From assembly GCA_038087875.1 (NCBI GenBank), contig CM075993.1, forward strand, positions 12,154,001 through 12,218,000: 64,000 bases of DNA, read 5' to 3'. Of this stretch, positions 5,676 through 63,048 are shown one piece after another; within the stretch, counting starts at the first letter, position 1; the number at the start of each line of letters is the position of its first letter. The notes beneath the pieces are model-generated. The model made no database searches. It worked only from the letters and a program-made list of their open reading frames with translations, and was not told where the DNA came from. Position numbers and translations under genes: made by a program. The DNA is from Malacoraja senta (Eukaryota).

Positions 5676-5763
5676 AAATGGATGAATTTGTGACTCTGTG
5701 ATCAGTCGCAGTATTAGTAACGTCAGATGTAACATCTCCAACAATGGAAGCAACAGGTACCAA

Positions 5764-7570: not shown

Positions 7571-8082
7571 TATAAGTCACCAACACAACCTACCAAACAC
7601 AACTAATCTCAAAGAGCAAAGACACAAATTGCTGGAGTAACTCAGTGGGTCAGGCAGGCATCCTTGGAGGACATGAATAGGTGTCGTTTTGAGTCAGGAA
7701 CCCTCTTCAGACTGATTGCAGGAGTTTGAAGTTGATTGGAGGCAGAAGAAGGGTCCTGAAACGTCAGGGATGTTCACACTGAAGATAGACACCAAATCCT
7801 GGAGTAACACAGTGACACATCTCTGAATGGAAGGAATGGGTGACGTTTCGGGTCAAGACCCTTCTTCAGAGATGTCACTTAACTCGCTGAGTCACACTAA
7901 TTACACTGTCTTTCCTTGCTTCTAAATCTCGATGAGGATGGCTTATTGTTGGCCATAACTGGAACGCATCTGTGTCTAAAGAAACTGTGCTGTGAATTCA
8001 AGCTTCTCTGATACACTTGTTATTTATACAGGGGGTGTGGGCTTCCAGACTGAGCCAGCATTTCATTGCCTGTTCCCAATGG

Positions 8083-8378: not shown

Positions 8379-8409
8379 AGGGCTTGGAGAAGGTGGTGGG
8401 AAGTGCTGC

Positions 8410-10190: not shown

Positions 10191-10829
10191 CCTGGAGATG
10201 TGAATATGCTCAGTGGTGTTATGGAGGGAGCTCCAGCTCTTTGATTCAGTGAGAGTGAAGGAAATGCGATATACATCTAGGTTAGGATGGTGAGTGGCTT
10301 AGAGGACAACTTCCAGGTGGTAGCGTCCCCATGCTGCCCCTGCCCCTGCCCCCCGAGCTGCTGGAGGTGTAGGAAGGAACTGGAGATGCTGGTTTAAACT
10401 GAAGATAGACACAAAAAGCTGGTGTAACTCAGCGGGCCAGACAGCATCTCTGGAGAAAAGGAATAGGTGACGTCTTGGGTCGAGACCCTTCTTCAGTAGA
10501 GGTGATGGACGTAGAAGGTGCTGGGTAAGATGTTTTTGCCGAGTTGTTGCAGTGCATCTTGTGGATGGTACAAACTGCAGTGCAGTGGGTTAGTGGTGGA
10601 GTGAGCAAATGGTGGTGAATGGGGTGACAATTGAACCAGTTGCTGTGTCCTGAGCTACAGGAACTCTGTTGAAGACAAATACATTCTATTACACGCCTGC
10701 ATCAAGCCCTGTCAATGGTGGATTGACTTTGGTGAGTTACAACCCACGGTTTTAGGATATTTCCCCAGGAGGTCTCAGTCTGAGTTACCGAGGCATCCAG
10801 GTTATGGATTGCTCACATCTATATTTAGA

Positions 10830-11660: not shown

Positions 11661-11734
11661 CCACATATACAGGGACAATTCAGATGTGAAAAAGCTGAAG
11701 GCTCCCACCAAAAGCTTTGTAGAAACTGGTAGTA

Positions 11735-12355
11735 AAACCTTCCGCTGCAACCGCAGGAGATGCTACACCTGTCACTGTACCTCCTCCCTCGACTCTGTCT
11801 GCGGACCCCGACAGTCCCTTCAGGTCAGGCAGAGGTTCACTTGCACCTCCTCCAACCTCATCTACTGTATTCATTGTTCAAGATGTGGACTCTTATATAT
11901 CGGTGAGACCAAACGTAAACTGGGCGATCGTTTCACTGAACACCTTCGTTCAGTCCACATGGACCTTCCTGATCTCCCGGTTGCCAAACCCTTTAATTCC
12001 CCTTCCCATTCCCACACTGACCTTTCTGTCCTAGGCTTCCATTGTCGGAGTGAGGCCAAACGCAAATTGGCGGAACAGTATTGCATATTTTGCTTGGGCT
12101 GCTTACAACCCAGTGGTATGAATATTAATTTCTCTCACTTCAAGTTGAGTCATTATCTGTACTCGTTGTAACCTAACAGCTAATCTTTCATTCATTTATT
12201 CTATATCTCTCTACATCACCATCTATATCTCTTGTTTCCATTATCCCCTAACTCTCAGTCTGAAGAAGGGTCTCCACCCAAAACGTCACCTATTCCATTT
12301 CTCCACAGATGCTGTCTGACCCGCTGAGTTACTCCAGCTTTTTGTGTCTATCTTG
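11735..12355 (+). mobile_element. Penelope-like element 3' part: GIY-YIG endonuclease plus terminal repeat
   Basis: ORF 11599..12171 contains FTCTSSNLIYCIHCSRCGLLYIGETKRKLGDRFTEH (GIY-YIG). It is followed by the ctgaagaagggtc..aaacgtcacc terminal motif. Confidence 0.9.
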
Positions 12356-27134: not shown

Positions 27135-27334
27135 NNNNNNNNNNNNNNNNNNNNNNNNNNNNNNNNNNNNNNNNNNNNNNNNNNNNNNNNNNNNNNNNNN
27201 NNNNNNNNNNNNNNNNNNNNNNNNNNNNNNNNNNNNNNNNNNNNNNNNNNNNNNNNNNNNNNNNNNNNNNNNNNNNNNNNNNNNNNNNNNNNNNNNNNNN
27301 NNNNNNNNNNNNNNNNNNNNNNNNNNNNNNNNNN
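27135..27334. other. Assembly gap (200 N)
   Basis: Run of N. Confidence 1.
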
Positions 27335-27720: not shown

Positions 27721-30009
27721 AGGAGGGAGGGAAGGAAAGAGAGAGAGATGGAGGGAAGGAAAGAGTGAGGGAGCGAGGAGGGAAGGATGGGAGAGAGGGT
27801 GGAAGGGGGTGAGGAAGGGAGGGGAAGAGGAAGGAGGGGGCGAGGGAAGAAGGGAGGAGGCGAGGGAAGATGGATGGTACCATGAAGGAGGGAGAAAAAG
27901 GAGAGCTGAGAGAGATGGAGGCAAATGAGAGAGGGAGGGAGGGGCAAGGAGTGTTGTGTCATTCTGGTCTCCACATCATGGGAGGGATGAGATTGGAGAG
28001 GGTGCAGAGGAGATTCAGCTGGGTGTTGCCAGGAAGGAGTATCTCGGTTATCTCTCGGAGGGAGGAACGGCTGGGTTCGATTTCCTTGGAGCGGACATAG
28101 TTGAGGGTAGATGGTAGACAAAAATGCTGGAGAAACTCAGCGGGTGAGGTACTCCAGCATCTATGGAGCGAAGGGAAATAGGCAACGTTTCGGGTCGAAA
28201 CCCTTCTTCAGACTTTCCAGCATCCGCAGTTTCTTCTTAAACATAGTTGATGGCGGTCCTAATTCAGATGCAAAGTTAAGGGGTCCAGAGAGGTAGATGG
28301 TAAGAAACATTTCCCCAGAAGGCCAGACGTTTAGGGGAATGTGTAAGGGGTTTGGATGGGATCTGAGGAGGATTTTTCCCCAGAACATGGTTGGAATCTG
28401 GAGATCACTGTGGTGAGAGTCGTAGAGGCAGATATTAGCACAAGATTTAAGAAATATCCAGGCAAAACAGAACTGCCAAGATATGGAGGTCCATGGAGCA
28501 TTGGTTTGGATGTGGGTTGGTACGGAAGGGGGATGGAGTGATGAGGGGAGAGAGATAGAGTGTTGGAGTGGGGAGAAAGAGAGATGGCGAGATGTGGGGT
28601 AGGGTGGGGAGAGAGGGATTGGGGGAGGGAAGAAGGTGAGGGGGGGTGGGCGATGGAATGGGGAGAGAGGAAGGAGATGCAGTGGGGATGGAGGGAGGGA
28701 ATGGAGTAGGGTGGGTGGGAGGGAGGGCAGAAGACCCTGTTTCTTATACAACCCCATGACCAAGAGCTGGGCTGGAGAGGACTTGTGCAGAATGTGTGCA
28801 TGCCATCCTCTGATTTATCATCGTCCATTAAAAAAAAATGTCACTTTACAACCACACCTTAGAACCTAGTACAGACTTCTTCCCACTCCATGGTCAATGG
28901 ATCTTCTAGCCTCACAAAACTATCCATAATTACTGCTGATAAAATAACCCATGTTCAGTTCTGATAATTGGTGGTGAAGAAATTATCTAAGGTTACAACA
29001 GGATACAAGAACTGGATCAACATGACAAGCAGTCCGGAATGGCAGCTGGAATTTAACTAGGATAGGCGGCATATGTTGCATCTTAGTGACTTAAACTAGG
29101 ATAGGAATTACAGTGGTATATAGTTCCCTGAGGGTGGCGACACAGACAGAGAGGTAAATGTGTTTGCTTCATTGGCTGCGATACTGAGTATGTGACTCCT
29201 GTATTGTTCAGGGGGCAGAGGGTTGCTTTCCATTGTAATGTGAAGCCACATCACCTGCAAAGGTGAGTTGAAAAAATGATTTCTGGTTCTTCTTTACTTT
29301 TAGCTAGGTTTAGAGATACAGCGCAGAAACAGGCCCTTCAGCCCATCGAGACTGCGTCGACCAGCGATCCCTGTACACCAGCACTACTCTACATACTGGG
29401 GACAATTTAAAAATGTACGAAAGCAAATTAACATACAATCCTGTACGTCTGTGGAACATAGGACTGTTTTCAATCTATTGTACCTTTGTCAGCACCAGAT
29501 ACATGACAACGCTTGTGTCCGATCTAGGTGTGGTCTGCTGCATGATTTTAACAAAACATTTCACTGTACATGTGACAATAAAATATTGTTAAATTGAATT
29601 GGATCACCCATCAGGTCGCTGGGGGGTGGGGGGGGGAATAATAGGGGACTACAAATCCACATGGACATGGGAGGAAACCAGAGCACCCGGGGAAACCCAC
29701 CACACCTGGTGAACATGAAAACTCCACACTCACAGACAGCAGCAGAGGTCAGGACTGAACCAGATCACTGGAGCCGTCAGACAGCGGATCCACCAGTTCA
29801 GGCCTCAGCTGCTCTCCCCTTCCGAGGGATGTTTAGAGAGTCTGCAACAACTAAATCAAAATTATATGGATAGGACAGGTTTAGAGGATATGGGCCAAAT
29901 GCAAGCAGGTGAGAAAGTGTGGATGGACATGTTGGCTGGTGTGGGCAAGTTGGGCCGAAGGGCCTCTTTACTCGCTGTAATATTCTGTGAGTATGATTCT
30001 AAAAGTTGC

Positions 30010-33980: not shown

Positions 33981-34050
33981 TGCCATGTTTCACACATCCC
34001 GGCAGCGGCCACGGAGTGGGACATCGCTCTCTTAGTTTAGTTTAGACAGA

Positions 34051-34350
34051 TAGACACAGAAAAGCTGGAGTAACTCAGCGGGTCTGGAGAGAAGGAATGG
34101 GTAACGTTTTGGGTCGAGACCCTTCTTCAGACACAGATTCAGGGGCTGAGTTACTCCAGCAATTTGTGTCTACCTTCGGTTTAAACCAGCATCTGCAGTT
34201 CCTTCCTACACATACTTAGTTTCGTTTAGGAAGGAATTGCAGATGCTGGTTTAAACCGAAGACACATAATGTTGGAGTAACTCAGCGGGACAGGCGGCAT
34301 CTCTGGAGAGAAGGAATGGGTGACGTTTCGGGTCGAGACCCTTCTTCAGA
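34051..34350. mobile_element. Cluster of Penelope terminal-repeat fragments in alternating orientation
   Basis: Three pieces of the gctggagtaactcagcggg..gaaggaatgggtgacgtttcgggtcgagacccttcttcag unit. Intact hammerhead-like core on the minus strand at 34322-34349. Confidence 0.8.
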
Positions 34351-36045: not shown

Positions 36046-36579
36046 TGAGTTGGGTCAGAAAACATGCAGCAGGATGGAACACTGAAGGAAGGATCAGCAG
36101 CAACCTGCACCTGGGCTGGGAACCAGGGCTGGGATATGGAGCTTCCCAATGGACAGGGCCAGGCTGTGGGCAGAGGACAGACAGGCCGGATGGGGAGGGG
36201 CAGTCTCTCAGCAAAAAGGACACCGTTAGAGGCACTGGAGGGTGGGCAGTGGGTGAGGAATGAGGACCGGCTTCAGAAGAAACTCCCAGCACCACAGTGC
36301 TCCAGGGCTGGTCATGAGGTCCTCCTCACAGGGAATTCTAAAGGACCCGCGTGAAGGAGATACTCCTCATCTCAGCACTAAACGGCACACACATACTTAG
36401 AAAATATTTTTAAAAAATTAAACTTTAAAACAACTGCAGATGCTGGAAATCTGAAATAAATGCAGAAAATGCCAGGTAAACCTAGAAGATCAGGCAGCAT
36501 CTGTGGAGAGAGAAACAGTTAATGTTTCAGGTCTGGGATCGTTCATCGGAACTGAGCAAGAGAGGGACAAGAATCAACC

Positions 36580-36915: not shown

Positions 36916-37909
36916 GCTTAATATTGACGTTCTAGGATTTCACCATCTCCCGTGCTGAATTCCCCAGTTACAATATCAGCTTCAGTCATGAAATCGGATG
37001 CCATGTAGTCACTTAAGGTGCAAAAAGGGAAGGTCAAAGCAGAGGTGGAACTGCAAAAGTGGTTGAGATGTGCTTTACTGCTGTAATGAATGAGGATACT
37101 CTTGGAAGGTGCAGGTGGAGCATAAAGAAGGGTCTCGACCCGAAACATCACCCATTCCTTCTCTCCAGAGATGCTGCCTGTCCCGCTGAGTTGCTCCAGC
37201 ATTTTGTGTCTGTTTCTATGGCTTGTGGACATGAAAATTAACAACTCTATTCTGTTAGCTTCATTTGTTACTAGTATTGCAGACTTTTAAAAGAAGACCC
37301 AGGGCCCTGTGCATGTCACTGCTCTGTGATCTCTCACATATTAAATAACGGGCTTGCTCTTGGCAAAATGAACGACCTCACATTTCCCTAGATTATATTC
37401 CATTGCTAGATTGTTGCCCGCCCACTTAACCCACCTCCTATAGTCCTCACAAATCCTCTCTACAACTCACTCTCCTATCTATCAGCAACCAATTAAACAA
37501 CCATACCTTCACCAAACCATCGATATAAATTCTAAAATGCTGAGGCCAGGTAACAATTTCCATAGAATGAGTTACATTTGTTAACCAGTAAATGACCCAT
37601 TCACACCAAGTAAAAGACAAAGGGTTGGAGGAACTCGACGGGTCAGGCAGCATTTGTGGAGAGAAATGAACACTCAATGTTTTGGGTCAGGACTCTTCAA
37701 TGGTTCGATCGTGCGTTTCTTGGCACACGTGCACATGCACAGTGGAATTATTTTCTCACATACAGTCCAGTACAGTATTCCCATACCCAAGCACATCCTC
37801 GATTAGCACATTTACAGAAATAGTCTACTGAGCCCACATGCAAGAGGTGCCATGTTTTCGTGCCATTTTATGACATATTTTTCTGACTTGATATGAATGG
37901 GCTCTGACC

Positions 37910-39395: not shown

Positions 39396-41738
39396 ACGTC
39401 GCATCCCAGGCAATATCCTAACAAATCTGCTCTGCACCTTCTCTCAGATAATCGCAACATTTTTGTATCAGCAGACAAGATGCTACAATATAACCTTTAC
39501 CTTTGTCTATTTTGTGAACAGAAACAGTTGAGGCTTCAGCAGGGATCACTGTGATTCCATATTAGTTACTGATATCCAATCCAAAATTGTTCCTTTGCTG
39601 TGATTTTCTGTTAGTTGGTTGCTCAGCCAATATATTGCATGTCCCTATCTTGTGTCATATTCTTTTATATGGCAGCTTATCAAACAGCATTTGGAAATCC
39701 CAATGCACTCATCTACTCCCAATTAATCATACTATTTGTAATATCCTGAAACAACAGAAGCAAATCTGCCAAATACAATCTTCCCTCCTTCGAGCTGCAA
39801 CCATGTTGACTCATTGTCATTGTTTTATAATCTATGTTAATATCACAGTGTATTAGGCTCTTCAGCCCAACTTGTCCATGCTGACCAAGATGCCCTATCT
39901 ACACTTGTCTCACCTGCCTGTGTTTGGCCCATATCCCTCTTAAATGTTGCAATAGTTTCTGCCTCAACTACCTCCTCTGCCAGTTTGTTCCATACACCCA
40001 CCACCTCCTGTGGGAAAAAGGTGCCCTTCACATTCCTATTAAATCTTTTCCATCTCACCTTAAACCTGACCCTTGGTTGTTGATTCCCCAGATAAAGTAT
40101 CTGTGCATTTACCCTATCTATCCTCCCAATTATTTTATACGCCTCTATTTTATACCCCTCACCTTTCTGTGCTCCAAGTCCTAGCCTGCACAACATCTCC
40201 CTATTGCTCAGGCCCTCACGTCCTGGCAACATCCTTGTAAATCATTGCTAGGTCCATTTTCTTACAAGGGTGGCACAGTGGTGCAGCTGGTAGAGGTGCT
40301 ATTTCACAGCACCAGAAGCGTACAATTGATCCTGACCTCGAGTGCTGTCCCTGTGGGGTTTGAACGTTTTCCCTGTGACTGTGTGGGATTCCTTTGGGTG
40401 CTCTAGCTTCCTCCTACATCCCAAAGACCTGCAGGCTAATTGGATGTGAAAGTGGGATAGCATAAAACCCGTGTGAATGGATGATCGATGATCCAATGTG
40501 TGAATGGGTGATCGATGGACTTGATGGGCCAAAGGCCCAGTTTCCATGCTGTATTTCTAAACAAAATTGGTTTATATCAAGATCCAGGGATTTCCAATCA
40601 AGTGGAATTGAAATGTAAAGATTTGCACAATTGATCCTCAATGTCCTGTTCTCACAAGTGAAAGTGGAGATTGAGATTACACGCTGCTGAATAGACAGGA
40701 ACCAGTGACTGGGTTACACCGGGCTGTGGTGGGATTGGATCATCTCTGTGAGAGCTGCAGTCTTCTGCTTCAACATGACAGTACGTCACACAGCATCAGC
40801 AGGAACCCAGGGAAGCAACGTTCTCTTTGCTCTTCATCCCTGGAATTCAGGAGGCATTGCAGTCAGCTGCTGGTCAACCTACCATGTGGGGAAAACGTGT
40901 AGGAAGGAACTGCAGATGCTGGTTTAAACCAAAGATAGACGCAAAATGGTGGAGTAACTCAGCGGGACAGGCAGCATCTCGGGAGAGGAATGGGTGACGT
41001 TTCGGGTCAAGACCTTTCTTCAGACTGCTTTAAGGGTGGGATTAGAATAGGTAAGGGGAGTTGAAAAGTTGAGATGGTTGATGTCACTTTCTTTTTAGGG
41101 GTGAGGTTAGAGTAGTCTGAAGAAGGGTCTCGACCCAAAACATCACCCATTCCTTCTCTCCAGAGATGCTGCCTGTCCCGCTGAGTTACTCCAGCATTTT
41201 GTGTCTATGTGGGGAAAACAGATGAGAGAAGGCCAGGGGCGCTGTCCACTGTGGGAGTGGAGAAGTCCAAAGAGGAGAATTACTCCTTTCACACCACACC
41301 TGAGTTGGCCAGGCCCATGTGCAGATTCTCCCTTTATTCCCAATGGCTCCATTCTTCCTCTGGGGGCTGTCTTGCTGTTCATTTACTCATCTCATCCCCA
41401 CAATTGTTCTTAATCTGATCTCCAGTGATGTTTTATGTATTCCATTGCCCCTCTGCCCTCGTTCTTCCTGCTTGAAGCACCTCTCCAATACTATAATCCT
41501 GACAACCTACTCCTCTTTTCAGTATCTGTACCTACTATTCACATCCCTTGTGCAGAAAGGAACTGCAGATTCTGGTATAACCGAAGGTAGACACAAAGTG
41601 CTGGGGTAGCTCGGCGGGTCAGGCAGCATCTTTGGAGAAAAAGAATGGGTGACTTTTCAGCATCCTTTCGGGATGCATCTCCTTTTGTCTTGATTGAACC
41701 CCTCAATATTACTTGCCTTCCAGGAATTTGCCACCCTA

Positions 41739-42051
41739 ATGGGCCTGTCTCACTTAGGCAACTCTTTAGGCGACTGCCAGGGACTAGTTTTAATGGAATT
41801 CACCTACGACACCTGGCGACAACCTACGACAGCACCTACGACATCTGGCGACAACCTACGACAGCACCTACGACACCTGGCGACAACCTACGACAGCATC
41901 TACGACACCTGGCGACAACCTACGACAGCATCTACGACAACCTGCATCTAACAAATGTCGCCACTATCACCCAAAAATTGTCAACATGTTGAACATTTTA
42001 CGGCAGTCGCCTATAGTCGCCCAAAAAAACGCCTAAGTGGGACAGGGCCAT
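41739..42051. mobile_element. MITE with PIF/Harbinger-like TIRs and an internal 32-bp tandem array
   Basis: Left end GGGCCTGTCTCACTTAGGC (41741) versus right end, reverse-complemented, GGCCCTGTCCCACTTAGGC (42031-42049). Flanks CTA / TTA. Confidence 0.7.
41801..41938 (+). repeat. Tandem repeat, 32-bp unit x about 4.3
   Basis: cacctacgacacctggcgacaacctacgacag repeated head to tail with 1-nt variants. Confidence 0.95.
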
Positions 42052-42580: not shown

Positions 42581-43079
42581 GTGATATACATCACAAACAT
42601 AATTCTTCATTTACAACCCAATGATATGAATATTGATTTCTCTAACTTCCTTGCATTCCCTCTCTCTGTGTCCCTCATCCACCCTAGTTGTCCAACAAGC
42701 TTCACAATCATCCTGCTTAGTTTCACTGTTTGTATCCACTCATTATCACCTTCCCCACAGCCAACAATAGACCAATGTGGGCTCCACATTTCCTTCATCA
42801 TCATTGCTGGCTGTGATTTATCCTATTGCATACCTTTCATTTATTTGTTCTTTGAACCTTTTCATATCTCTTGTTTCCCTTTCCCCTGACTCTCAGTTTG
42901 AAGAAGGGTCTCGACCTGAAACATCACCTATTCCTTTTCTCCAGAGATGCTGCCTGACCCGCTGAGTTACTCCAGCATTTTGTGTCTATCTTCATTATCT
43001 TGTGTTACTTTGCCAATATCAAGCATCACACAGCAATGTCCAGCATGTCAAGCAGTATTCAGCCCGATCCAGTATTATA

Positions 43080-43165
43080 CAGTAATATTTAGCATTATTC
43101 AGCATTATTCAGCATTATTCAGTAATATTCAGCATTATTCAGTAATATTCAGCATTATTCAGCAT
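43080..43165 (+). repeat. 10-bp tandem repeat (agcattattc / agtaatattc)
   Basis: About 8 units read directly. Confidence 0.9.
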
Positions 43166-45749
43166 CCTGCAGAATTACATCAGTTGGTCAAATCAGTTGC
43201 CAGTTGAGACACAAACTCAGTGAGCTGGTTGTAGTTGAGATACTTGCCACTGCCCCATCTACACTACTCGGATGTGGACAGGTTTTGCCCATTGAATGGC
43301 ACTAATAACTCAGCAGCAGTTCAGGCTGATGCCTCATCACTACCTTCATCGAGGACAACTAAGGATGGACAAGACATGCTCTCCATCCAACCTCTGCCCC
43401 CAGCGATATACAGCTGTCTGAATGGACATTGATAATACCACAGTACAACCGTTAAAAGACATTTGGAAAGATATCTAGATAGGAAGGGGTCAGAAAGATA
43501 TGGGCTAAACAAAGGCAAGTGCTATCAGGCCAGTACAGCAACTTGGTTGGCCTGAGGAAGGTGGGCCAAACAGTCGGTTTCTGTGCAGTACAGCCCCATG
43601 AGTCTATAACTCTATCTATGACTTCTCCACACTTGTGTTAAACCACTGAATTACAATCTAACTCAGTTCCTCATTATCAGGTCAGACATGTACATGTGAG
43701 GATCTGGGTTATATGCAGGCAGATAGGAGATGGTCTTGGCATCATGTATGGCACAGACACTGTGGGTTGAAGGGCCTGTCCCGGTGCCTATGTTCCATCA
43801 GTAGGTTTTGAAGTGAATTACTGAAGAGCCAATGGGCCAGCACCCAATGTCCGATTTGGGTTTTGGCATCGGTTAATTTGCTTCATAGAATCGTGGACTG
43901 GCAGCCAGGAAGTGCCATGCCTCTGCCAGCACCACCTTCACTGGTCAGGCCAGCATTTCCTCAATCGCACTGAGAATTTCCCCTTTTTCATATCTAATTC
44001 TGCTTTGAAAGCTGCTGTGCAATTTGCTTCCCCAATCCAGGTAGTGACCACTCACTGCGAAAGGAATTCTCCCTTCTGGAGGGCTTCCCCACTCCCACAG
44101 CGGACAGCGCTCCTGGCCTTGTCTCCTCTTGTTCCCCACACTCTGCTCCTGGACAGAGCACAAGCATGTTCCCCTCAACCTCCCCAGTGCCTCTTGCCGT
44201 TACACCAAGCTCCAGGAAACACACCTCATGTTACATCTGGGCACAGCCCTCTCTCCTAGTTGACAGAGACATTTAAAAGGCAATTAGATAGGCACATGCA
44301 GGGAATAGAGGGATATGGATCCCATGCACTTAGAGGGGATTAGAGTCATTGAATCATTCAGCACTGAAACAAGGCCAAAATCTACCCGGCCCATCTGCCT
44401 GCACACATCGTTCTAGACCTTTCCTTCTACGTACCTGTCCAAATGTATTTTAAATGTTGTTTTAGTGTCTGCCGCACCTACCTCCTCTGGTAGCTCAATC
44501 CATATACCAACTACCTTCTATGTGAAAAATGCTGCCCCTCATTTTCCTATTAAACCTTTCCCCTTTCACCTTCATCCTACAATATGTCCTCTGGTTCTTA
44601 ATTCCCACACTCTGGGTAAAATACTCTGTTTAGTTCGACTTGGTGTCATGTTTGGCGCAGATATTGTGGGTTAAAAGGCTGTACTGTTGCTGTATTGTAC
44701 TGTACTGTTCAATGTGTAGCAAGGAACAGTAGATGGTGGTTTATACTGAAGATAGACATAAATGCTGGAGTAACTCAGTAGGTCAGGCAGCATCTCTGAG
44801 AAAAAGGATGGGTGAGTCTGAAGAAGGGTTCCGACCTAAAACATCACCCATCCTTTCTGGAAACAGGCCCTTTGGCCCAACCTGCCCACACTGGCCAACA
44901 TGTCGCAGCTACACTAGTCCCAACTGCCTGCTCTTGGTCCATATCTCTCCAAACCTGTCCTAACTGTTTCTTAAATGTTGGGATAGTCCCAGCCTCAACT
45001 ACCTTCTCTGGCAGCTTGTTCCATACACCCACCACCATTTGCGTGATAAAGTTACCCCTCAGATTCCTGGTAAATAATTTCCCCTTCACCTTGAACCCAT
45101 GTCATCGGGTCCTCGATTCCCCTACTCTGGGCAAGAGATTCTGTGCATCTGCCCGATCTATTCCTCTATTCCTCTTTGTACATTCTGACTTGATGGGCAC
45201 TTGCCAGACTGCACAACATCATCCAGAGACACGTAACACATAACATGTTTGACTGCTCCATCATTTCACCCTATTACATATACTGCACCCTGTACCCTCC
45301 CCAACCTTCTCTGCTAACTAGAGATGCATTCAAAGATATTTTTTGAAGCATCTGCAGGGATTCTTACGAGGGACGAGAGTGGGCATATGATAGATGTGCC
45401 CACGTGAGAGCCCTTTGGGAACAGTGACCATAGATCAGTGAATCTCACAGCTCCAGAGACCTTGGTTTGATCCTGACCTCGGGTGCTGCCTGTGTGAAGT
45501 TTGAACCTTCTCGCTGTGACTGTGTGTGTTTCAACTGGGTGCTTCAATTTCCACCCACATCTCAAAACCTTGCAGGTTTGTAGGTTCATTTGCTCTGTAA
45601 ATTGCTGCTCGTATGTAGGGAGTGGATGCAAAAGTGGGTTAACATAGAACTAGTGTGAAAATGGGTGATCTATGGTCTGTGTGGATTCAATGGGTCAAAT
45701 GGCATGTTTCGAGTAACAAAGAACTGCAGATGCTGGTTTACACCAAAGA

Positions 45750-45923
45750 TAGACACAAAGTGCTGGAGTAACTCAGCGGGACAGGCAGCATCTCTGCAGA
45801 GAAGGAATGGGTGACATTTCAGGTTGCGAAGTCTGAAGAAGGGTCTGGACCCGAAACGTCACCCATTCCTTCTCTCTGGAGATGCTGCCTGTCCCGCTGA
45901 GTTACTCCAGCATTTTGTGTCTA
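45750..45923. mobile_element. Inverted (fold-back) pair of Penelope terminal repeats
   Basis: Left arm 45750-45823 is the near reverse complement of about 45849-45923. Hammerhead-like core at 45833-45860. Confidence 0.85.
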
Positions 45924-46147
45924 ACTATGGACACATTTCCATGGACTATCTTTGATCAGACTGAAATGGAGGCTTATAATACTATAATACTGGAACTAGA
46001 GGACGGAGGTGAGAGGAGAAATTTAAAGAAGTTCTGAGGTATAGGGTTTTACCACTGTGAGTGGCAGTCATCTGGAATAAGCTGCCAGTTACAATTCTAA
46101 CAGTCAAAGGCATTTGAATAGGACTAGAGTAGAGGGATACTGGCCTA

Positions 46148-46830
46148 TGGTTTCAATGGTTTCAATGGTCTTTTATTATCACGTGTACCAACTAAGGGAC
46201 AGTGATATGCAAATTACCATACAGCCATACGAAAAACAAGCAACAAGACACACAACTACATAAAAGTGAACATAAACATCCACCACAGTGGATTCCCCAC
46301 ATTCCTCACTGTGATGGAAGGCAACAAAGTCCAATCTTCTTCCCCTTTATTCTCCCGTGGTCGGGGAAGTCGAACCATCCGTCGGGACGATCGAAGCTCC
46401 TGCAGCTGTCGGTCGAAGCCCCCGCGTTGGGGCGATCGGAACTCCCGCATCAGGGCGGTCGAAACCCCCGCATCAGGGCGGTCGAAGCTCCAGCGGCTTG
46501 GAGTTCCCAAAGTCGTTCTCTGACCAGTGACCGCAGGCTCCGTGATGTTAAATTCTGCAAGCACCAACAGTTGGAGCTCCGAGGTTGATCCCTGGCAAAG
46601 GGGTTGCGAGCTCCGTGATGTTCCGTTGGATTCCCACGGCGAAGTTCTCAAAATCGGTCTCCAGCAAAGGCCGCCAACTTCTCAATGTTAACCCACAGTG
46701 CGGATGGACATACCATAGGGGGGAAAATTACATCCCTGTCGAGGTAAGAGTTTAGAAAAAGTTCCCCCCAGCCCCCCTCCCCCCCCACCCCCACCCCCAC
46801 ATAAAACAAGCTAAAGAACACTGAAAACAT
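46148..46830 (-). mobile_element. GC-rich non-coding retroposon (family X)
   Basis: Stem-loop 46280-46317, AATAAA and (attgaaacc)n tail on the minus strand; internal short duplications. Confidence 0.7.
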
Positions 46831-46899
46831 GACCCCAGAATTAATGGGAAAGAAAGCTCACAAAGGGATAGGAGAGTATGGCCAAGTGTAGTAGGGATC

Positions 46900-49832
46900 G
46901 ATGTGAATGGTGAGATGCGTAAGGAATTAAAAGTATTGTATATGAATGCGCGAAGTATAAGAAGTAAAGTAGATGAGCTTGAGGCTCAGTTAGAGGTTGG
47001 TAGATATGACATTGTGGGGATTACCGACACGTGGCTGCAGGAGGATCGGGTCTGGAAACTTAATATTCAGGGTTATACATCCTATAGAAAGGACAGGCAT
47101 GTGGGCAGAGGAGGGGGGGTAGCTCTTCTGGTGAGGAATGGAATTCAGTCCCTTGTGAGGGAAGACATAGGGACTGACGAGGTAGAGTCTCTGTGGATTG
47201 AGTTGAGGAATTACAAAGGCAAGAAGACACTAATTGGTGTTATCTACAGACCCCCAAATATTAGCCCGGATGTAGGGTGTAAGTTGCAGCAGGAGTTAAA
47301 ACTGGCATGTAACAAAGGTAATGCCACTGTGGTGATGGGGGAATTCAATATGCAGGTAGACTGGGAAAATCAGGTTGGTTCAGGACCCCAAGAAAGAGAG
47401 TTTGTAGAATGCCTCCGAGATGGATTCTTAGAGCAGCTTGTAATGGAGCCGACCAGAGAAAAGGCAATTCTGGATTTAGTGTTGTCCAATGAACCAAATT
47501 TAATAAGAGAACTCGAGGTAAAGGAACCGCTTGGATGCAGTGATCGTATTATGATTAGTTTTAATCTGCAATTTGAGAAGGAGAAGGTTAAATTGGAAGT
47601 GGCAGTGATGCAGTTGAACAAAGGGGATTATGAAGGCATGAGAGGGGAGCTGGCCAAGGTAGACTAGAAGGGACACTGGCAGGAATGACTGTGGAACAGC
47701 AATGGCAAGAATTTCTGGGCATAATCCGGAAGAAACAGGATCATTTAATTCCAAAAAGGAAGAAAGATTCTAAGGGGAGTAGGAGGCAACCGTGGCTGAC
47801 AAGAGAAGTTAGGGATAGAATTAAAAGAAAAGATGTATAACACAGCAAAGAGTAGCCGGAAGCCAGATGATTGGGAAACATTCATAGGGCAACAGAAGGA
47901 AAAAAAACGGGCAATATGGCTGAAAAGATGAAGTACAAAGGGAAGCAGGCCAGGAGTATAAAGGACAGAAAAAGCTTCTTTAGATATGTTAATGGAAAAA
48001 GAGCAGCAAAGTCAAATGTGGGTCCCTTGAAGGCAGACACGGGTGAGATTATTATGGGGAACAAGGAAATGGCAGAAAAGTTGAACAGGTACTTCGGATC
48101 TGTCTTCACTAAGGAAGACACAAACAATCTCCCTGAAGTACTGGAGGACAGAGGATCTAAGGGGGTCGACGAACTAAAATAAATGTTCATTAGGTGAGAA
48201 ATAGTATTGGGTAGGCTAATGGGACTGAAGGATGATAAATCCCCAGGGCCTGATGGTCTGCATCCCAGGGTCCTCAGGGAGGTGGCTCTAGAAATAGTGG
48301 ACGCATTGGTGATCATTTTCCAATGTTCAATAGATTCAGGATCAGTTCCTGTGGACTGGAGGATAGCTAATGTTATCCCACTTTTCAAGAAAGGAGCGAG
48401 AGAGAAAACGGGGAATTACAGACCAGTTAGCCTGACTTCGGTGGTGGGAAAGATGCTGGAGTCAATTATTAAAGAGGTAATAATGGGGCATTTGGATAGC
48501 GGTAAAAGGATTAGTCTAAGTCAACATGGATTTATGAAAGGGAAATCATGCTTGACTAATCTTCTGGAACTTTTTGAGGATGTGACAAGTAAAATGGATG
48601 AAGGGGTGCCAGTGGATGTAGTGTATCTAGACTTTCAGAAAGCCTTTGATAAGGTCCCGCACGGGAGACTGGTGACTAAAATTAGAGCACATGGTATTGG
48701 GGTGTTGACGTGGATAGAAAATTGGGTGGCAGACAGGAAGAAAAGAGTAGGAGTGAACGGGTCCTTTTCAGAATGGCAGGCAGTGGCGCAAGGCTCGGTA
48801 TTAGGGCCGCAACTGTTTACCATATATATTAATGATTTGGAAGAGGGAATTAGGAGCAACACTAGCAAGTTTGCGGATGACACAAAGCTGGGTGGCAGTG
48901 CGAAATCTGAAAAGGATGTTAGGAGGTTGCAGGGTGACCTGGACAGGTTGAGTGAGTGGGCAGATGCGTGGCAGATGCAGTATAATATAGATAAATGTGA
49001 GGTTATCCACTTTGGTGGCAAAAACAAGGGGGCAGATTATTATCTTATTATGTCCTTGTACACCAGTAACTGAAAGTTGGCGTGCAGGTACAGCAGGCAG
49101 TGAAGAAAGCTAATGGAATGTTAGACAATAGACAACAGACAATAGGTACAGGAGTAGGCCATTTGGCCTACATTCAATATGATGTTGGCCTTCATAACAA
49201 GAGGATTTCAGTATAGGAGTAGAGAGGTTCTTCTGCAGTTGTATAGGGCTCTGTTAAGACCACATCTGGAGTATTGCGTTCAGTTTTGGTCTCCTAATTT
49301 GAGGAAGGACATCCTTGTGATTGAGGCAGTGCAGCGTAGGTTCACAAGATTGATCCCTGGGATGGCGGGAGTGTCATATGAGGAAAGATTGAAAAGTCTA
49401 GGCTTGTATTCACTGGAGTTTAGAAGGATGAGGGGTTATCTTATAGAAACATATAAAATTATAAAAGGACTGGACAAGCTAAATGCAGGAAAAATGTTCC
49501 CAATGTTGGACGAGTCCAGGACCAGGGGCCACAGTCTTAAAATAAAGGGGAGGCCATTTAATACTGAGGTGAGAAAAAACTTGTTTACCCAGAGAGTTGT
49601 GAATTTGTGGAATTCCCTGCCACAGAGGGCAGTGGAGGCCAAATCACTGGATGGATTTAAGAGAGAGTTAGATAGAGCTCTAGGGACTGGTGGAATCAAG
49701 GGATATGGGGAGAAGGCAGGCACGGGTTATTGATTGGGGACGATCAGCCATGATCACAATGAATGGCGGTGCTGGCTCGAAGGGCCGAATGGCCTCCTTC
49801 TGCACCTATTTTCTATGTCTATGTCTATGTCT
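46900..49832 (+). mobile_element. CR1 LINE with near-complete but disrupted ORF2 (APE endonuclease plus RT)
   Basis: ORF 46903..47667 is APE (YMNARSIRSK, GITDTWL, GGGVALLV, GVIYRPP, PTREKAILDLVL). ORF 48207..49073 is RT and 49179..49733 is the C-terminus. Several stops and frameshifts; (tctatg)n tail. Confidence 0.97.
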
Positions 49833-52800
49833 CTACATTTAACACATACTATTAAACACAATAGAAAGAAAGGACAGACAGACTGTTGGCGAGGCAGCCT
49901 AATTCAGGCTAATGGGTGTCGTGTAGATAGGCATTGTGGACTTATGTACAAGGTTGTATCATGGACTTGCTTCTGTACTGTACAATCCCTGGACAAACCT
50001 GTTTCCTCATTTTCTCAGTTCTGCTGAAGAGTCCCAGACTTGAAAGGTCATCTGTTTCTCTTTCCACAGATGCTACCTGCATTGCAGAATTTTCCAGCAT
50101 TTTCTGTTTCTGTCTCCTTTCTATTGTCTGTCCTTCTGACCATCTCAGCTGCAGCCTTTCCACTATTCTATCACAACTCCTACGGCATTCGGCAATCCAC
50201 ACGAGCAGTAGATAAGTCTAAAGAAAGGTTCCGATCCGAAACGCCCCCTATTCCTTTTCTATTAAGATGCTGTCGGACCCGCTGAGTTACTCCAGCATTT
50301 AGTGTCTATCTTGGGTATAAACCAGCATCTACAGTTCCTTCCTGCAGAATGGATAGGTTTCTCTGGAATGTGTTGCTTGTAGGTGGGACAGTTTGGAATT
50401 ACTCCCTTGTAGTCTGGAAACATCTCAACAGGTCAATAACTTGTCTGGAATGGCTCACCTGAAGGATGCAGTGGCTGACTGCAAAGCCTTCTGAGTTCCA
50501 GGGGTGAGGAGCAATGAGAAATTTGCTTCCCTGGGCTCCTGTTTACACTATGTGACGTGCTGTCATGTTGAAGCAGAAGACTGACGCTCTCACAGAGCAA
50601 GGGATAAGCGGCAAGGAGCAGCGGGAGAGTCGCTGCCTTACAGTGTCAGGTACCCGGGTTCGATCCTGATGATGGGTGCTTGTCTGTATGGAGTTTGTAC
50701 GTTCTCCATGTGATCTGCGTGGGGTTTTCCCGGATGCTCCGGTTTCCTCCCACACTCCAAAGACACACAGGTTTGTAGGTTAGTTGGCTTCAGTAAAGAG
50801 TGGAAATTGTCCCTTGTGTGTAGGATGGTGCTAGTGTACGGGGATCGCTGTTTGGCACGGAGTCGGCGGGTCTAAAGGCCTGTTTCCGCGCTGTGTCAAA
50901 CTAAACTAAGTTGAGCTAATCCCACCACAGCCCAGTCACTGCCTGCCTCTGGCTCCTGTCTATTCTGCAGCATATAACCTCAATCTCCACTTTCACCTGT
51001 GAGAATGGGGCACTGAGAATCAACTGTGCAGAATTTTACATTTCATTTCCACCTGATTGGAAACCCCTGAAGCTAAAGATAAAAGCACTTGAGGAGTTTT
51101 GCCAAGCATTGATTCAGGATATAAAGAAAAATCATAAAATAATGAAACTAAGTCAACATGGTTGTAGCCAGGAGCGGAGATGGTATTTGGCAGATTTGCC
51201 CGTGTTGTTTCAAGATATTACAAATAATATGAATGATTGGCAAGGGAGCAGACAAGTGCATCGGGGTTTCCAAATGTTATTTAATATGCTGCCGCATAAA
51301 AGAATATTACTCAAGGTGGGGATAGTGTAATATGTTGGCACGGATAGCGAAGCTAATTAACTGAAATGAAAGGGTCATTTTTGGATTGGACATCAGTAAC
51401 TGGCATGGAGTCACAGTGATCCATGCTGAAACCTCAACTGTTTATATTCACAAGATATAAGATGACACAGCGTGTACCATTATCATGTCTTTGCTGGTAC
51501 AAAAATGGTGGGTTGGCAAGTCACGAGGAATTCAGGGAACCAGCAAAGTGACATACTACAGTGGGATCTAGGGGTCCAAGTCCATAACTCCCTGAAAGAG
51601 GCAACACAAATAGACAGAGTGGTAAAGATTTCACATGCCCTTTGTCTATTTAATGACTTCCGCTTTCCGAGCCCCCACTCCCTCATCTTTACTATGGATG
51701 TTCAGTCACTCTGCACCTCCATCCCCCACCAGGAAGGCCTTAAAGCCCTCCGTTTCTTCCTCGACCGCAGAACCATCCCATTTCCCCCCACTAACACTCT
51801 ACTCCACCTAGCAGAGCTGGTCCTCACCCTCAACATCTTCTCCTCTGACTCCTCCCACTTCCTCCAAGTCCAAGGCGTAGCTATGGGCACCCGCATGGGC
51901 CCCAGCTATGCCTGCCTCTTTGTAGGGTACGTTGAAAAATCAGTGTTCCAGGCGTACACTGGCCCTATCCCCGAACTCTATCTCCATTACATTGATGACT
52001 GCATGGGTGCTCCCTCCTGCACCCATGCAGAACTCATGGACTTCATCAACTTCACCACCAATTTTCATCCTGCACTCAAATTTACTTGGACCATCTCCGA
52101 CACCTCCCTCCCCTTTCTTGATCTCACCGTCTCCATCACAAGAAATAGATTATTGATTGACGTCTATTACAAACCCACTGACTCCCACAACTATCTCGAC
52201 TACACTTCTTCCCACCCTGCTTCCTGCAAAGACTATCCCCTTCTCCCAATTCCTCCGTCTATGCCGCAACTGCCTCACTCGTGCCTCCTCAGTACGCCGC
52301 AGCTTCGCCCTTGCTCCCCCTTCCCCTAGTTGCAACAGAGACAGAGTCCCCCTAGTCAATAGACAATAGACAATAGGTGCAAAAGTAGGCCATTTGGCCC
52401 TTCGAGCCATCACCGCCATTCAATGTGATCATTCCCAATCAGTACACCGTTCCTGCCTTCTCCCCATATCCCCTGACTCCGCTATCTTTAAGAGCCCTAT
52501 CTAGTTCTCTCTTGAAAGCATCCAGAGAATCTGCCTTCACCACCCTCTGAGGCAGAGAATTCCACAGACCTTATCTTCCACCCCATCAGCCGTCGCATAC
52601 AACACATAATCCACCGAAGTTTTTGCCACCTCCAGCGGGATTCCACCATTAGCCACATTTTCCCATCTCCACCCCTTTCCATCTTCCGCAGAGACTGTTC
52701 CCTCGGCAACTCCCTGGTTAACATCCCTTCCCACCCAAACCACGCCCTCCCCTGGTACCTTTCACCTGCAATCGCAGAAGATGCAACACCTGTCGCTATA

Positions 52801-53273
52801 CCTGCTCCGTCGACCCTGTCCAGGGACCCTGACAGTCCTTTCAGGTTAGGCAGAGGTTCACTTGCACCTCCTCCAACCTCATCTACAGTATCCATTGTTC
52901 AAGATGTGGACTCTTATACATCGGCGAGACCAAACGCAGACTGGGCGATCGTTTCGCGGAACACCTTCGCTCAGCCCGCCTGAACCAACCTGATCTCCCG
53001 GTTGCTAAACACTTTAATTCTCCTTCCCATTCGTACACAGACCTTTCTGTCCTCGGTCTCCTCCATTGTCAGAGTGAGGCTAAATGCAAATTGGAGGAAC
53101 AGCATCTCATATTTCTCTTCCAGCTTCCAGATGGTATGAATATTGATTTCTCTCACTTCAGGTAACCCCGGCATTCCCTCTCTCTCCATCCCTCCCCCAC
53201 CCAAGTCGCACCAGCTTCTCATTTTCACCCTACAAACAGCTTACAATGGCCTGTTTCCTTTATCATCGTTACT

Positions 53274-54158
53274 GTTGCCTCGCCAACAGTCTGTCTGTCC
53301 TTTCTTTCCTTTGTGTTTATTAGAATGTTAAATGTATGTTTTTATTTTTCTTTAGTTTGCTTTATGTGGGGAGTGGGGGAAACTATTTCTAATCTTTTAC
53401 CTCAACGGAGATGTGATTCTTTCCCTATCATATCTCCGTCCGCACTGTTGTGTATTTGGATGCTTGGAACAGACTTCAATAAGGCTCAGACACGGGAGTA
53501 ATCTTACACACGTCTTTATTCCAGAACGCCACCTTGAGTCTCTCCATGCACATGTGTACTTGCACAAGACATCACAAGACACTAATTACATATGCTAATT
53601 ATCACATACCTAACACTCCTCCCCCTTTAACTTGGAGGCATGTAACACCATTTCTATTACATACCTAACACGCACTGTGGCCTAACATTGAGCAGTTGGT
53701 GGCGTTTGCTGGAGGCCGACTTCGAGAAGCTCCACTGCGGAGCTTGCAGACTTACCATCGTGGAGCTCGCAATCCCTTAGCCAGGGATCCACCTCGGAGC
53801 TCCAACCGTGGGAGCCTGTGGACTTAATATCACAAAGTCCGCGGTCTCTGATCAGAGACGAATGTCAGGGACTCCGAGCCGTGGGAGTTTTGATCACCCC
53901 GATGCTGAGGCTTCGATCGCCCCGACGGATGGTCTGACTGCCCCAACCGCGGGAGAATAAAGAGGAAGATGATGGGACATTATTGCCTTCCATCACAGTG
54001 AGGAATGTGGGGAATCCACTGTGGTGGATGTTTATGTTAACTTTGATGTATTGTTGCTTTTTTTCCCCGTATGGCTGTATGGTAATTTGCATATCACTGT
54101 ACCTTAATTGGTACACGAGACAATAAAACACCTTTGAAACCTTTGAAACTTTTGAAAC
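53274..54158 (+). mobile_element. GC-rich non-coding retroposon (family X) inserted in the Penelope 3' region
   Basis: Stem-loop 53990-54027, terminal hairpin 54098-54115, AATAAA and (tttgaaacc)n tail. Confidence 0.75.
53446..53670 (-). mobile_element. Internally deleted LTR retrotransposon (one 170-bp LTR, PPT and a stub of the other LTR)
   Basis: Perfect 5-bp TSD CGCAC (53441-53445 and 53671-53675). TG..CA LTR 53446-53615 with AATAAA. PPT TTAAAGGGGGAGGAG 53630-53616. LTR start TGTTAGGTATGT repeated at 53670-53659. Confidence 0.85.
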
Positions 54159-54240
54159 ATTTTTGTATTTCTTTCGATCATTGTTCTTTATCTCTCCACA
54201 TCACCATCTATATCTTTCATTTCCCTTGTCCCTAACCAGT

Positions 54241-54268
54241 CTGAAGAAGGGTCTCGACCCGAAACGTC
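54241..54268 (+). ncRNA. Minimal hammerhead-ribozyme-like motif in a Penelope terminal repeat
   Basis: CTGAAGA-A-GGGTC-TC-GACCC-GAAAC-GTC: CUGANGA and GAAA core boxes, stem II and a GUC cleavage triplet. Stem I is only about 2 bp. Confidence 0.65.
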
Positions 54269-54789
54269 ACCCATTCCTTCTCTACAGAGATGCTCCCTGT
54301 CCCGCTGAGTTACTCCAGCATTTTGTACCTATCTTAGGCAAATGGAATGTATGTAGCCTTCATTGGTCGGGGCATAGAGTATAAGAGTCAGGAAGTCATG
54401 ATGCAGCTTGATAGCAATTTAGATAGGTCGTGTTTGGAGTAATGCGTGCAGATCTGGTCGCCCCATTCCAGGAAGGATCTAGTGGCTTTGGAGAGGGTGC
54501 AGAGGAGGTTTACCAGAATGATGCCTGGATGAGGAGATATTAACTATGGGGGTAGGTTTGACAGATTTCGATTGTTTTCTCTAGAACATTCGAGATTAAG
54601 AGGAGACGATAGAAGCATCCAAAAATTATGAGAGGCATTGAACTTCATAACTTGTTCCCCATATGTAGAAAAGGGGTGGTGCTTCACCGCACTAGAGACC
54701 TGGATTCAGCCCTGACCTACGGTGCTGTCTATGTGTAGTTTGCACGTTCTCCCTGTGACCATGTGGGTTTCCTCCCACACCACAGAGGC

Positions 54790-60023: not shown

Positions 60024-60724
60024 AAGATACAAGATACAGATCCAGGAACTTGAGTTCAATCCTGACCTCTGGTACTGCCTGTGTGGAGTTTGCATGTTCT
60101 CCCCGTGACCGTGTGGGTTTTCGTCGGATGCTGTGGTTTCCTCCCACATCCCATCTGTGTAGTTGTGAATGGCTTGATTGTACTCATTTGTAGTATGATT
60201 TGATTAGACTGAGTAGCACGCAAACAAAAGGTTTTACGACACGATACGATATGATACGATAGAACTTTATTTATCCCAGGAGGGAAATTAATCTACCAAG
60301 TGTCATAAGAAACACAAATCTCAGTATCTCGGTACACGTGACAATAATACACTAATATCTAAGACCTGCAGGTTGGTGGGTTAATTGTGGGCGTAGTGGA
60401 ATCTGGGAAAGTTATCGAGAATGTGGGGAGAATATTCAAGGGCTTGAGCTATAGGGGAAGAATGAGCAAGCTGGTGCTCTACTCCCTGGAGCACAGGAGG
60501 ATGAGGTGTATAAAATCATGAGGAATACGTAGATCGGGCAGACGCACAGAGTCTCTTGCCCAGAGTAGGGGAATCGAGACCCAGAGTGCATAGGTTTAAG
60601 ATGAAGGGATAAGAATTCTTATAAGAATTTGAAGGTTAACTTTTTCATGCAAAGGGTGGTGGGTGTATGGAATGAGCTGCCAGAGGAGGTAATTGAGGCA
60701 AGGACAATTGAAACATTTAAGAAG

Positions 60725-61976
60725 TATATGAGTATTGAGGCCAGGCAACAACTCTCACATACCCCCTCCTACTTATGCTTGGACCATGATCCCACAGATG
60801 AGCACTGGCCCATAATCTCTCAGGCCATTTCAGATGTGATCACTTCTGGCTTTCTGCCCTCCACAGTCTCCAAGCTTATCATTTCCCAGCCAACCTCCCA
60901 GAAGGTTTTACCTTCTCCCCAAAAGCCATAAACACAACTGCCCTGGCAGACCCATGACTTCTGCCTGCTCCTGTCCCACTGAAATGATTTCCACGTACCT
61001 CGACTCCATCCTATCCCCCTTGGTCCAATCTCTCCCGACCTATGTCCAAGATACTTCACACGCCCTTCGTCTCTTTAATGACTTCCGCAATCCGAGCCCC
61101 CACTCCCTCATCTTTACTATGGACGTTCAGTCACTCTACACCTCCATCCCCACGAGGAAGGCCTTAAAGCCCTCCCTTTCTTCCTCGACCGCAGAACCAC
61201 CCAATTTCTCTCTACTAACACTCTACTCTGCCTAGCGGTGCTGGTCCTCACCCTCAACAACTTCTCTTTGACTCCTCCAACTTCCTCCAAGTCCAAGGCA
61301 TAGCTATGGGCACCCGCATGGGCCCCAGCTATGCCTGCCTCTTTGTAGGGTACGTTGAACAATCCCTGTTCCAGGCTGCACTGGCCCTATCCCCAGACTC
61401 TATCTCCATTACATTGATGACTGCACCCCCGAGCAGAACTCATGGACTTCATCAACTTCACCACCAATTTCCATCCAGCACTCAAATTTACTTGGACCAT
61501 CTCCGACACCTCCCTCCCCTTTCTTGATCTCACAGAATCCATCACAGGAAATAGACTACCCACTGACTCCCATAACTATCTCGACTACACTTCTTCTCAC
61601 CCTGCTTTGTGCAAAGACTCTATCCCCTACACCCAATTCCTCCACCTATGCCGCATCTGCGCCCAAGATGAGGTGTTCTTTCCAGGACATCCGAGATGTC
61701 ATCATTGTTTAGGGAACGGGGGTTCCGCTCCCATCAGAGATGAGGCCCTCACTTGTGTCTCATCGATACCCCATATCTCCCCCTCGCCCTTGTCACAACC
61801 GAGACAGAGTCCCCCTAGTCCTTACCTTTTACCCCATCAGCCGTCGCATACAACACATAATCCTCCAAAATTTTGCCACCTCCAACGGGATCTCAACACT
61901 AGTCATATCTTCCCATCTCCATCCCTTTCCGCATTCTGCAGAGACCGTTCCCTCCGCAACTGCCTGGTCACATTTG
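60725..61976 (+). mobile_element. Penelope-like RT fragment inserted in a CR1 3' end
   Basis: TYLDSILSPLVQSLPTYVQDT..LIFTMDVQSLYTSIP, MGTRMGPSYACLFVG, LPFLD. CR1 sequence lies on both sides (about 60435-60724 and 61977-62120). Confidence 0.88.
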
Positions 61977-63048
61977 TTTAAGAAGCATTTGGACAGATAC
62001 ATGGATATGACATGTTGAGAGGTCTATGGGCCAAATGCAGGCAGATGGGACTAGTGTAGATGGGACATGTTGGCCGTCATGGGGATGTTGGGCCTGTTTC
62101 CACACTGTATGAGTCAGTGACACCCTAGGGCACTCTGGGGCCAGTCCTGTACCCACAACCGCCTAACTCAGTGGGCTCGTCACCACTGTCATGGCTAACA
62201 CCATTAGTTCTCCCATGATGCTTGCCATCCAGTCAATCCACAACCTAACACGAGAGGCGACACGGTGGTGCAGTGTTAGAGTTGCTGCCTTACAGCACCG
62301 GAGACCTGGGTTCGATCCTGACTATGGGAGCTCTTTGCACAGAGTTTGAACATTCTCCCCGTGACCACCTGGGTTTTCTCTGGGTTCTCCGGTTTCCTCC
62401 CACATTCCAACGATTTACAGGTTTGTCGGTTATTTATCTTCTGTAAATGTGGGCGGAGCACCAAGGCAAATTCCTTGTATGTGAATACCTGGCCAATAAA
62501 CGTACTTACTTACTTGTCCCTAGAGTGTAGGATAGAACAAATGTACGGAGTGATCGATGATTGGAGCGGACTTGGTGGGCCAGAGGGCCTGTTTCCACAC
62601 TGTATCTCCAAAGAAATTTAAACTTCAACTAAACATTTGGCAGTCAGAGGTGTCTAGCACAGAAACAGGCCCTTCAGCCCAATTAGTTGATACTGCCCAA
62701 AATTGTGAGATTGAGACAAGTTTGTGATCGAATGAAAGCTCCAAGCGATCAAATGTATTCATAATGCTTCCTTTGTGCCAGAAGTCTCCCAATCTCCTAC
62801 CCCCGCCCCCCCTCACCCTGCGACAAGTCATACACTCTTTATCACCACCTGTTCACCACAGAAGGTCAGAATCTTGTCCCCAGCTGACATTTTCTGACAA
62901 CTGCACCTGACATAAGCCAGTGGAGACACAAGGAACTGCAGGCTCTGGAACCTTGAACAAAACACAAAGTGCTGGAGGAACTGTGCGGGTCTGGCAGCAT
63001 CTGTGGAGGAAATGGACAGACGACGTTTCGGGTCTGGACCCTTCTTCA

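Follow-up and report, generated by a model that had tools for sequence, protein, structure and literature searches.

A minimal hammerhead motif, probably carried by the terminal repeat of a Neptune-type Penelope-like element in the skate Malacoraja senta

The window, i.e. the whole stretch of 64 000 nucleotides analysed from contig CM075993.1 of Malacoraja senta, contains the 5′ part of a tropomyosin gene on the minus strand (Table 1). Exons 3-9 were not found in the 27 kb remaining beyond exon 1b, in which there is one assembly gap. The hammerhead motif under study lies outside this gene, 21 kb upstream. Two other copies of the motif, at 28184 and 7842, had been placed in sense orientation within the TPM1 pre-mRNA. 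Tropomyosin exons were indeed recognized on the minus strand, and copy 28184 is in sense between exons 2b and 1b. Copy 7842 is also sense to tropomyosin and is located downstream of exon 1b, exon 3 not being found in the window. The other dominant repeat consists of long LINE remnants with endonuclease and reverse transcriptase (RT) frames (5024-7602, 8408-10191 and 46825-49896; RVT_1 tested), which we take to be CR1-like. A Tc1/mariner-type transposase remnant (5-712, minus strand; Pfam HTH_Tnp_Tc3_2) and two minisatellites (41801-41944, 32-base period; 43051-43165, 10-base period) were also detected.

The focal hammerhead is not a solo copy. It ends a 2.7-kb broken Penelope-like element, in which an RT remnant, a GIY-YIG endonuclease remnant, a spacer and the hammerhead follow one another in collinear order. 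The bases bordering the insertion that splits the spacer, 53273 and 54160, were joined directly in contigs of three of four public runs (contigs, probably DNA, from two organisms), which indicates that elsewhere the endonuclease end leads straight into the hammerhead. The Penelope origin proposed in a preliminary description of this DNA was borne out in the window, where three hammerhead copies sit behind the ORF end of the element; a fourth ORF-end-linked copy, at 21218, is cut just past the first core bases. All ORF-bearing copies in the window are 5′-truncated; a full-length one that opens with a direct repeat is missing there. A protein labelled Amblyraja radiata shares 78% identity with the RT, whose other closest named relatives are from Mobula and Chiloscyllium; relatives of about 890 amino acids carry both RT and GIY-YIG. 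The same order, RT then C-terminal GIY-YIG endonuclease, was found here, with both Pfam hits on the remnants below the curated cut-off. A C-x4-C-x2-C linker is present in the endonuclease remnants of the focal and second copies. A CX2-5CxxC linker before the endonuclease is described as a marker of the Neptune clade (PMC8557442), and the element fits the Neptune type by this motif, which Nematis shares. In several copies (54238-54337 and tailed copies, the divergent copy at 63048 included), one frame is open throughout unit and tail, which may be fortuitous or may mark where the ORF of the element begins. Three proteins annotated as isoforms of ordinary genes of skates and rays contain the RT sequence of the element, suggesting exonisation or mis-annotation.

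Table 1. Coordinates of the features described in the window
Feature	Position	Strand	Remarks
Minimal type I hammerhead motif (focal)	54241..54268	+	Fits the consensus in the supplement of PMC4209133
Core box 1	54241-54247	+	Within focal hammerhead
Extra A	54248	+	Within focal hammerhead
Helix II	54249-54260	+	Within focal hammerhead
GAAA box	54261-54264	+	Followed by palindromic CG, U16.1, C17
Predicted hammerhead cut	between 54268 and 54269	+	After C17
Helix I of focal copy	54239-54240 paired with 54269-54270	+	2 bp only
Terminal unit, short (tail-less) form	54238..54335	+	Headed by focal motif
RT remnant, 5′-truncated	51619..52356	+	Followed by the unrelated insert below
Unrelated repeat insert	52357-52569		Between RT and thumb/linker remnants
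Broken thumb/linker and GIY-YIG endonuclease coding remnant	52570..53165	+	C-x4-C-x2-C linker; stop at 53165
Spacer, left part	53166..53273	+	Between ORF stop and insert
Later insertion of unrelated repeats	53274..54159	.	886 bases; splits spacer; not in other copies
Spacer, right part	54160..54237	+	Pyrimidine-rich; ends at CAG/T (slash at the edge), splice-acceptor-like and initiator-like
Second copy: decayed hammerhead unit behind a GIY-YIG remnant and a short spacer	11719..12354	+	Unit at 12257-12354
Third copy: decayed hammerhead unit behind an ORF end and an unbroken spacer	42621..42992	+	Unit at 42895-42992
Further RT/thumb remnant of same family	60719..61978	+	No terminal unit attached
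Old divergent copy	36462..36553	-	28% from majority sequence; flanks can form 5-bp helix I (pairing by eye)
Tailed solo copy, example	10366..10496	-	Profile search
Further solo copies	2882, 7782-7870, 22358, 35015-35102, 37123, 41549-41660, 50215, 56469		Profile search
Head-to-head pair with its tail on the - arm and a tail-less + arm	40884..41219	.	87-base spacer; perfect 13-base target-site duplication
Head-to-head unit, tail-less arm on -, tail fragment on +	28095..28250	.	10-base duplication; tropomyosin intron
Head-to-head pair in microsatellite	34031..34222	.	8-base duplication
Tailed solo copy adjoining pair 34031-34222	34219-34350	-	
Head-to-head pair, + arm cut short by another repeat	44711..44858	.	
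Head-to-head pair	45712..45926	.	No duplication found
Tropomyosin 5′ part	33283-27395	-	Exons 1a ~33283, 2a ~32650, 2b ~32387, 1b ~27514
Assembly gap	27135-27334		In the 27 kb past exon 1b

Positions in the terminal unit were numbered from the A of AGTCTG (54238), taken as +1; C3 of the hammerhead is then +4 and the predicted cut falls after +31. The core boxes CUGANGA, GAAA and UH are present in the focal copy and in the majority sequence, with the extra nucleotide lying after position 9 and before 10.1, G10.1-C11.1 and the palindromic 15.2-16.2. Assignment to the minimal hammerhead class was upheld, the majority sequence having every feature of the published consensus (PMC4209133). The helix I of about 2 bp described previously was also recovered (Table 1). 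Helix II had been drawn with a 2-nt loop. A 2-nt RNA loop cannot close, and helix II was therefore corrected to 4 bp with a 4-nt loop. The motif is not a free-standing 28-mer, as had been supposed, and heads a unit of 98 or about 133 nt. We consider it probable that it is a minimal hammerhead in the pseudo-LTR (pLTR, the terminal repeat) of an endonuclease-bearing, Neptune-type Penelope-like element of cartilaginous fish, the copies of which decay neutrally.

All eight motif coordinates listed previously were correct when checked against the sequence. Two of these eight copies are not near-intact and have lesions at conserved positions: G16.2>A in 35072-35099, by which the palindrome is broken, and G10.1>A in 40996-41023. 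The copy at 63022 abuts an assembly gap, and its C3 is unseen. At three mismatches or fewer, 15 matches were obtained in the window and none in 100 shuffles. A profile built from five copies gave 31 hits, 13 on the plus strand and 18 on the minus strand, decayed and partial copies included. Variation confined to the stem II loop holds for the selected best copies only; across 22 aligned copies, G12 is A in seven, a loss due to CpG decay, and G16.2 is A in seven, both positions being CpG sites. Six of 23 aligned copies passed a strict consensus test, one of them via a wobble. Older subfamilies of the unit, with differing loops and helix I flanks, are found at 36462-36553 (minus), 50018-50108 (plus), 37607-37698 (minus), 62958-63048 (minus) and 28115-28214 (minus). 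An Rfam scan of the window gave no hammerhead family at E≤1, which is unsurprising because the motif has no helix III. Rfam miRNA hits at 34171-34264 were rejected, being two facing tails that form a hairpin and scoring below gathering scores. Exact-pattern scans for the motif in viral and metagenome contigs gave no hits.

The 3′ ends of 30 anchored copies fall into two groups. Nineteen end at +89 to +108 and ten at +122 or beyond, none ends at +109 to +121, and the remaining one is cut by another repeat. The two ends, about 35 nt apart, correspond to an optional tail of the unit; a 30-40 bp tail and two RT start sites are described for Penelope-like elements (PMC8557442, PMC11167929). Head-to-head pairs, of which five units were found, are single insertions. 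Three of the units lie between duplicated flanks, 13, 10 and 8 bases long (chance 0.3% for at least 12 bases, 1.3% for at least 9, 6% for at least 7). The tail is restricted to the upstream inverted arm in 5/5 units. The tail-less arm starts at +1 in four of the five, and the tailed arms are cut at -1, +20, +30, +67 and about +113. Head-to-head joints at 54237 also occur in the public runs. The 87-base spacer of one pair (41027-41113) is possibly captured DNA; its sole close match in the window is to 27 bases (85%) of the LINE remnant at 6809-6835. At 44770-44860 (plus), a single case, the inverted arm stops at about +30, beside the predicted cut site. For plain solos, searches for exact and one-mismatch duplications gave no convincing target duplication. 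Two hits on solos were explained by neighbouring copies and lay near the 5% chance rate.

At the 5′ side, starts were counted on 19 of the 30 copies, leaving out nine that have an upstream spacer of their own, one of excessive divergence and one at a gap. Eleven, two of them called by eye, start at -1 to +4, at the CAG/T just before the core; none starts at the cut site (+31 to +33). This clustering has P = 5e-11 under a crude uniform null, a generous value because upstream-extended copies were dropped. In the four public runs, the main 5′ break falls at the same place: among the 24 loose-end rows listed out of 3908, all 14 of the 5′ kind were at 54237-54240. The flanks are unrelated for those at 54238-54240 (agreement 0.31-0.34), and the break is ragged over +1 to +3. 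The CAGT at the unit start reads as an initiator or, just as well, as a splice acceptor.

By analogy with the anole element PAc, the protein of the element would nick the target, and reverse transcription would start at two internal sites, at about +98 and +133 of the unit. Extension of both target strands would give head-to-head pairs with a tail on one arm only. The RNA of the element would begin at the CAG/T just before the core, a step to which, jointly with run-off, we give roughly an even chance. Initiation in the 5′-most repeat would then run off at the RNA end after about 100-135 nt and yield short copies, while initiation in the 3′ repeat would yield longer 5′-truncated copies such as the focal one. 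The template would be uncut RNA; the hammerhead would be folded off in naked RNA and at best cut as a dimer or with the element's protein. Inserted copies would then decay neutrally, with no role in the host. Transcription start with RT run-off is the favoured origin of the common 5′ edge, our confidence being evenly balanced, because the AG is retained in most short copies and exon-1 sequence is absent from all of them. The solos devoid of duplication count against this explanation, as simple target-primed insertion would predict one; so do the want of a full-length copy in the window, the ragged 5′ break, the acceptor-like reading of the CAG/T, the tandem joints in the runs and the somewhat better-kept non-CpG core. 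The short copies look like decaying by-products of the element's copying, neither a separate element nor a host regulator. More specifically, and tentatively, they may be strong-stop-like products, RT starting in the 5′ repeat and running off the start three bases before the core. If so, the genome would be a very large fossil map of the RNA start and of the two sites where RT begins, pair asymmetry would record template use by a two-headed complex, and the palindrome might pair two RNA templates rather than cut them.

A possible, less probable origin of the 5′ edge is RNA processing or DNA cutting. In the former case, the spacer would be a GT-AG intron left in place, of the kind seen in D. 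virilis Penelope, with RT stopping, or the template ending, at the acceptor. This fits with the spacer varying in length between copies with fixed ends, with a donor-like CAG/GTAAC that overlaps the stop codon (GT at 53162-53163; donor-like site in 2/4 copies), and with an acceptor-like end, CAGT being at the hammerhead edge in 8/8 spacer-bearing copies behind a stretch that is 72-82% pyrimidine in 6/8. The D. virilis intron, too, stops where helix I begins on its 5′ side (PMC4209133). However, exon 2 would lack the AG that most short copies keep, none of them carries exon-1 sequence, and no donor-to-acceptor joint is present among 15 of the 877 joints in the runs, which are probably DNA. In the latter case, the endonuclease would cut its own pLTR at that edge; PAc is able to nick its own pLTR (PMC11167929). 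A start site and an acceptor can overlap, so that start and processing are not exclusive.

Competence of the ribozyme was assessed with nearest-neighbour energies, tertiary contacts being omitted. In the focal monomer, the predicted probability is below 0.005 for helix II and about 0.0001 for helix I. Helix II (-3.9 kcal/mol) is disfavoured relative to a competing hairpin (-8.9 kcal/mol) because GGGU prefers the ACCC past the cut site. The dimer fold was predicted at -6.1 vs -21.1, two other copies were predicted to favour helix II (0.7-0.8), and folding z-scores of the unit were not significant. Core mismatches (26/269) did not differ significantly from those downstream (171/1319; P=0.16). 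Outside CpG sites they were 19/247 (7.7%) vs 162/1273 (12.7%) (P=0.024; main family alone P=0.058), and this better-kept core may reflect constraint between subfamily masters. It is unlikely, in our estimation, that the hammerhead is vestigial in the young family and its sequence kept as a core promoter, a splice site or the start of a reading frame. The 2-bp helix I, where the old copy 36462-36553 could form 5 bp, would agree with such a loss, as would the frame open through the unit, the ACGT lying across the site of a downstream promoter element (RGACGTGY in D. virilis) and the lack of significant helix covariation among the 23 window copies (score 0.115, matched in 138/500 shuffles; low power). 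Yet covariation is not expected, because the copies stem from one master, and the majority sequence retains the consensus in every feature. Examples from Drosophila and Culex likewise include a helix I of 2 bp (PMC4209133), and in a weak search the open-frame peptide matched only three unnamed proteins of 104-161 amino acids, none of them fused to an RT.

The repeat had been suggested to spread on its own like a SINE, a claim not sustained by the focal copy, which forms the 3′ terminus of a broken 2.7-kb element. An independent non-autonomous family, SINE-like or retrozyme-like, transcribed from master copies of its own and mobilised in trans by the Penelope protein, is rather improbable. Short copies do far outnumber ORF-linked ones (three among 31 hits), their common start is sharp and both RT start sites lie within the unit. 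Moreover, a cis action of pLTRs on foreign sequence is on record (PMC3846280), and retrozymes are proposed to derive from pLTRs (bioRxiv 10.64898/2026.07.22.740005). Tandem joints of the unit in the public runs (35 and 41 contigs) indicate that tandem multiplication of some copies may occur. On the unit, summed word depth exceeded that of the endonuclease bins about 10-50 times, but contig depth cannot rank the parts. Against independence, the C/C and T/T types (+35/+43) each include ORF-linked and short copies, which are intermixed in a tree with weak support values; in this small sample, no SINE-type lineage apart from an autonomous partner was distinguished. The tRNA-derived Pol III head of a SINE (boxes A and B) was looked for, and no tRNA gene or box B was found in the window. 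The unit forms no tandem array there, and short copies share no 5′ flank.

Finally, self-cleavage of host pre-mRNAs such as the tropomyosin transcript by intact sense copies is very improbable and a host-regulatory reading is not supported: copies 28184 and 7842 keep all core positions in sense to the gene, and head-to-head junctions can add a long distal helix (at 44770-44860 the inverted arm is predicted to pair with sequence 3′ of the hammerhead, z=-3.1), but the monomers have no helix III, helix II has a predicted probability of 0.00 in both copies, published minimal-hammerhead monomers were uncleaved and dimers slow (PMC4209133), the PAc hammerhead required protein and could be dispensed with for in vitro insertion (PMC11167929), CpG decay is neutral, and the sense-strand depletion check previously proposed, run on the window, showed none (of nine copies left of exon 1a, six are in sense; P=0.51, low power).

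A hammerhead in a Penelope pLTR is a known arrangement. The common CAG/T start of short copies was not found described: the open-access literature searched holds no report of this family or of such a start, and the Neptune descriptions consulted (PMC8557442) mention no prevalence of copies that begin at a single point ahead of the core. A very common repeat would be re-annotated as the pLTR of a Penelope-like element in place of a SINE. In a family with so many short insertions and a sharp 5′ edge, the role of the hammerhead in the Penelope cycle and the formation of tail and inverted repeats would become testable from genome sequence alone.

The optional 30-40 bp 3′ tail, inverted pLTRs and target duplication (on 3/5 inverted units) of Penelope-like elements were all found. 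As in PAc, the Poseidon element of Anolis carolinensis (PMC11167929), the hammerhead is in the pLTR and two 3′ ends bracket a tail. PAc extends both strands and uses an uncut RNA template, as assumed here. PAc belongs to the Penelope/Poseidon clade and its ORF starts in stem II (PMC11167929), whereas the zinc-finger linker of the skate element is of the Neptune/Nematis kind and no start of an ORF was located in its unit. D. virilis Penelope (PMC2377424) likewise has a 2-bp helix I and a possible intron ending at helix I, with an internal promoter in the pLTR and a start site upstream of the intron; unlike in D. virilis, intron and start site are here deduced from sequence only. Non-LTR retrozymes (PMC7229834; bioRxiv 10.64898/2026.07.22.740005) are also short pLTR-related hammerhead repeats with dispersed monomers, and are reported in one chondrichthyan (bioRxiv 10.64898/2026.07.22.740005). 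They form circular RNA and tandem arrays in which the hammerheads are mostly canonical, whereas the copies here are dispersed or head-to-head with a minimal motif, and arrays with a hammerhead per unit were not seen in the window. The closest likeness in motif is to the metazoan minimal hammerheads, reported in 2014 as a class with dispersed single motifs and opposite-strand pairs 100-700 bp apart (PMC4209133). They share CUGANGA and the extra nucleotide, G10.1-C11.1, GAAA, the 2-nt palindrome, UH and U-rich sequence upstream, and lie in the pLTR 3′ of RT-EN, mostly as single motifs from truncated elements. Helix I is here at the short extreme (2 bp) and helix II is short (4 bp). No cartilaginous fish stands among the examples consulted in the supplement of PMC4209133, and the present family would extend the class to this group.
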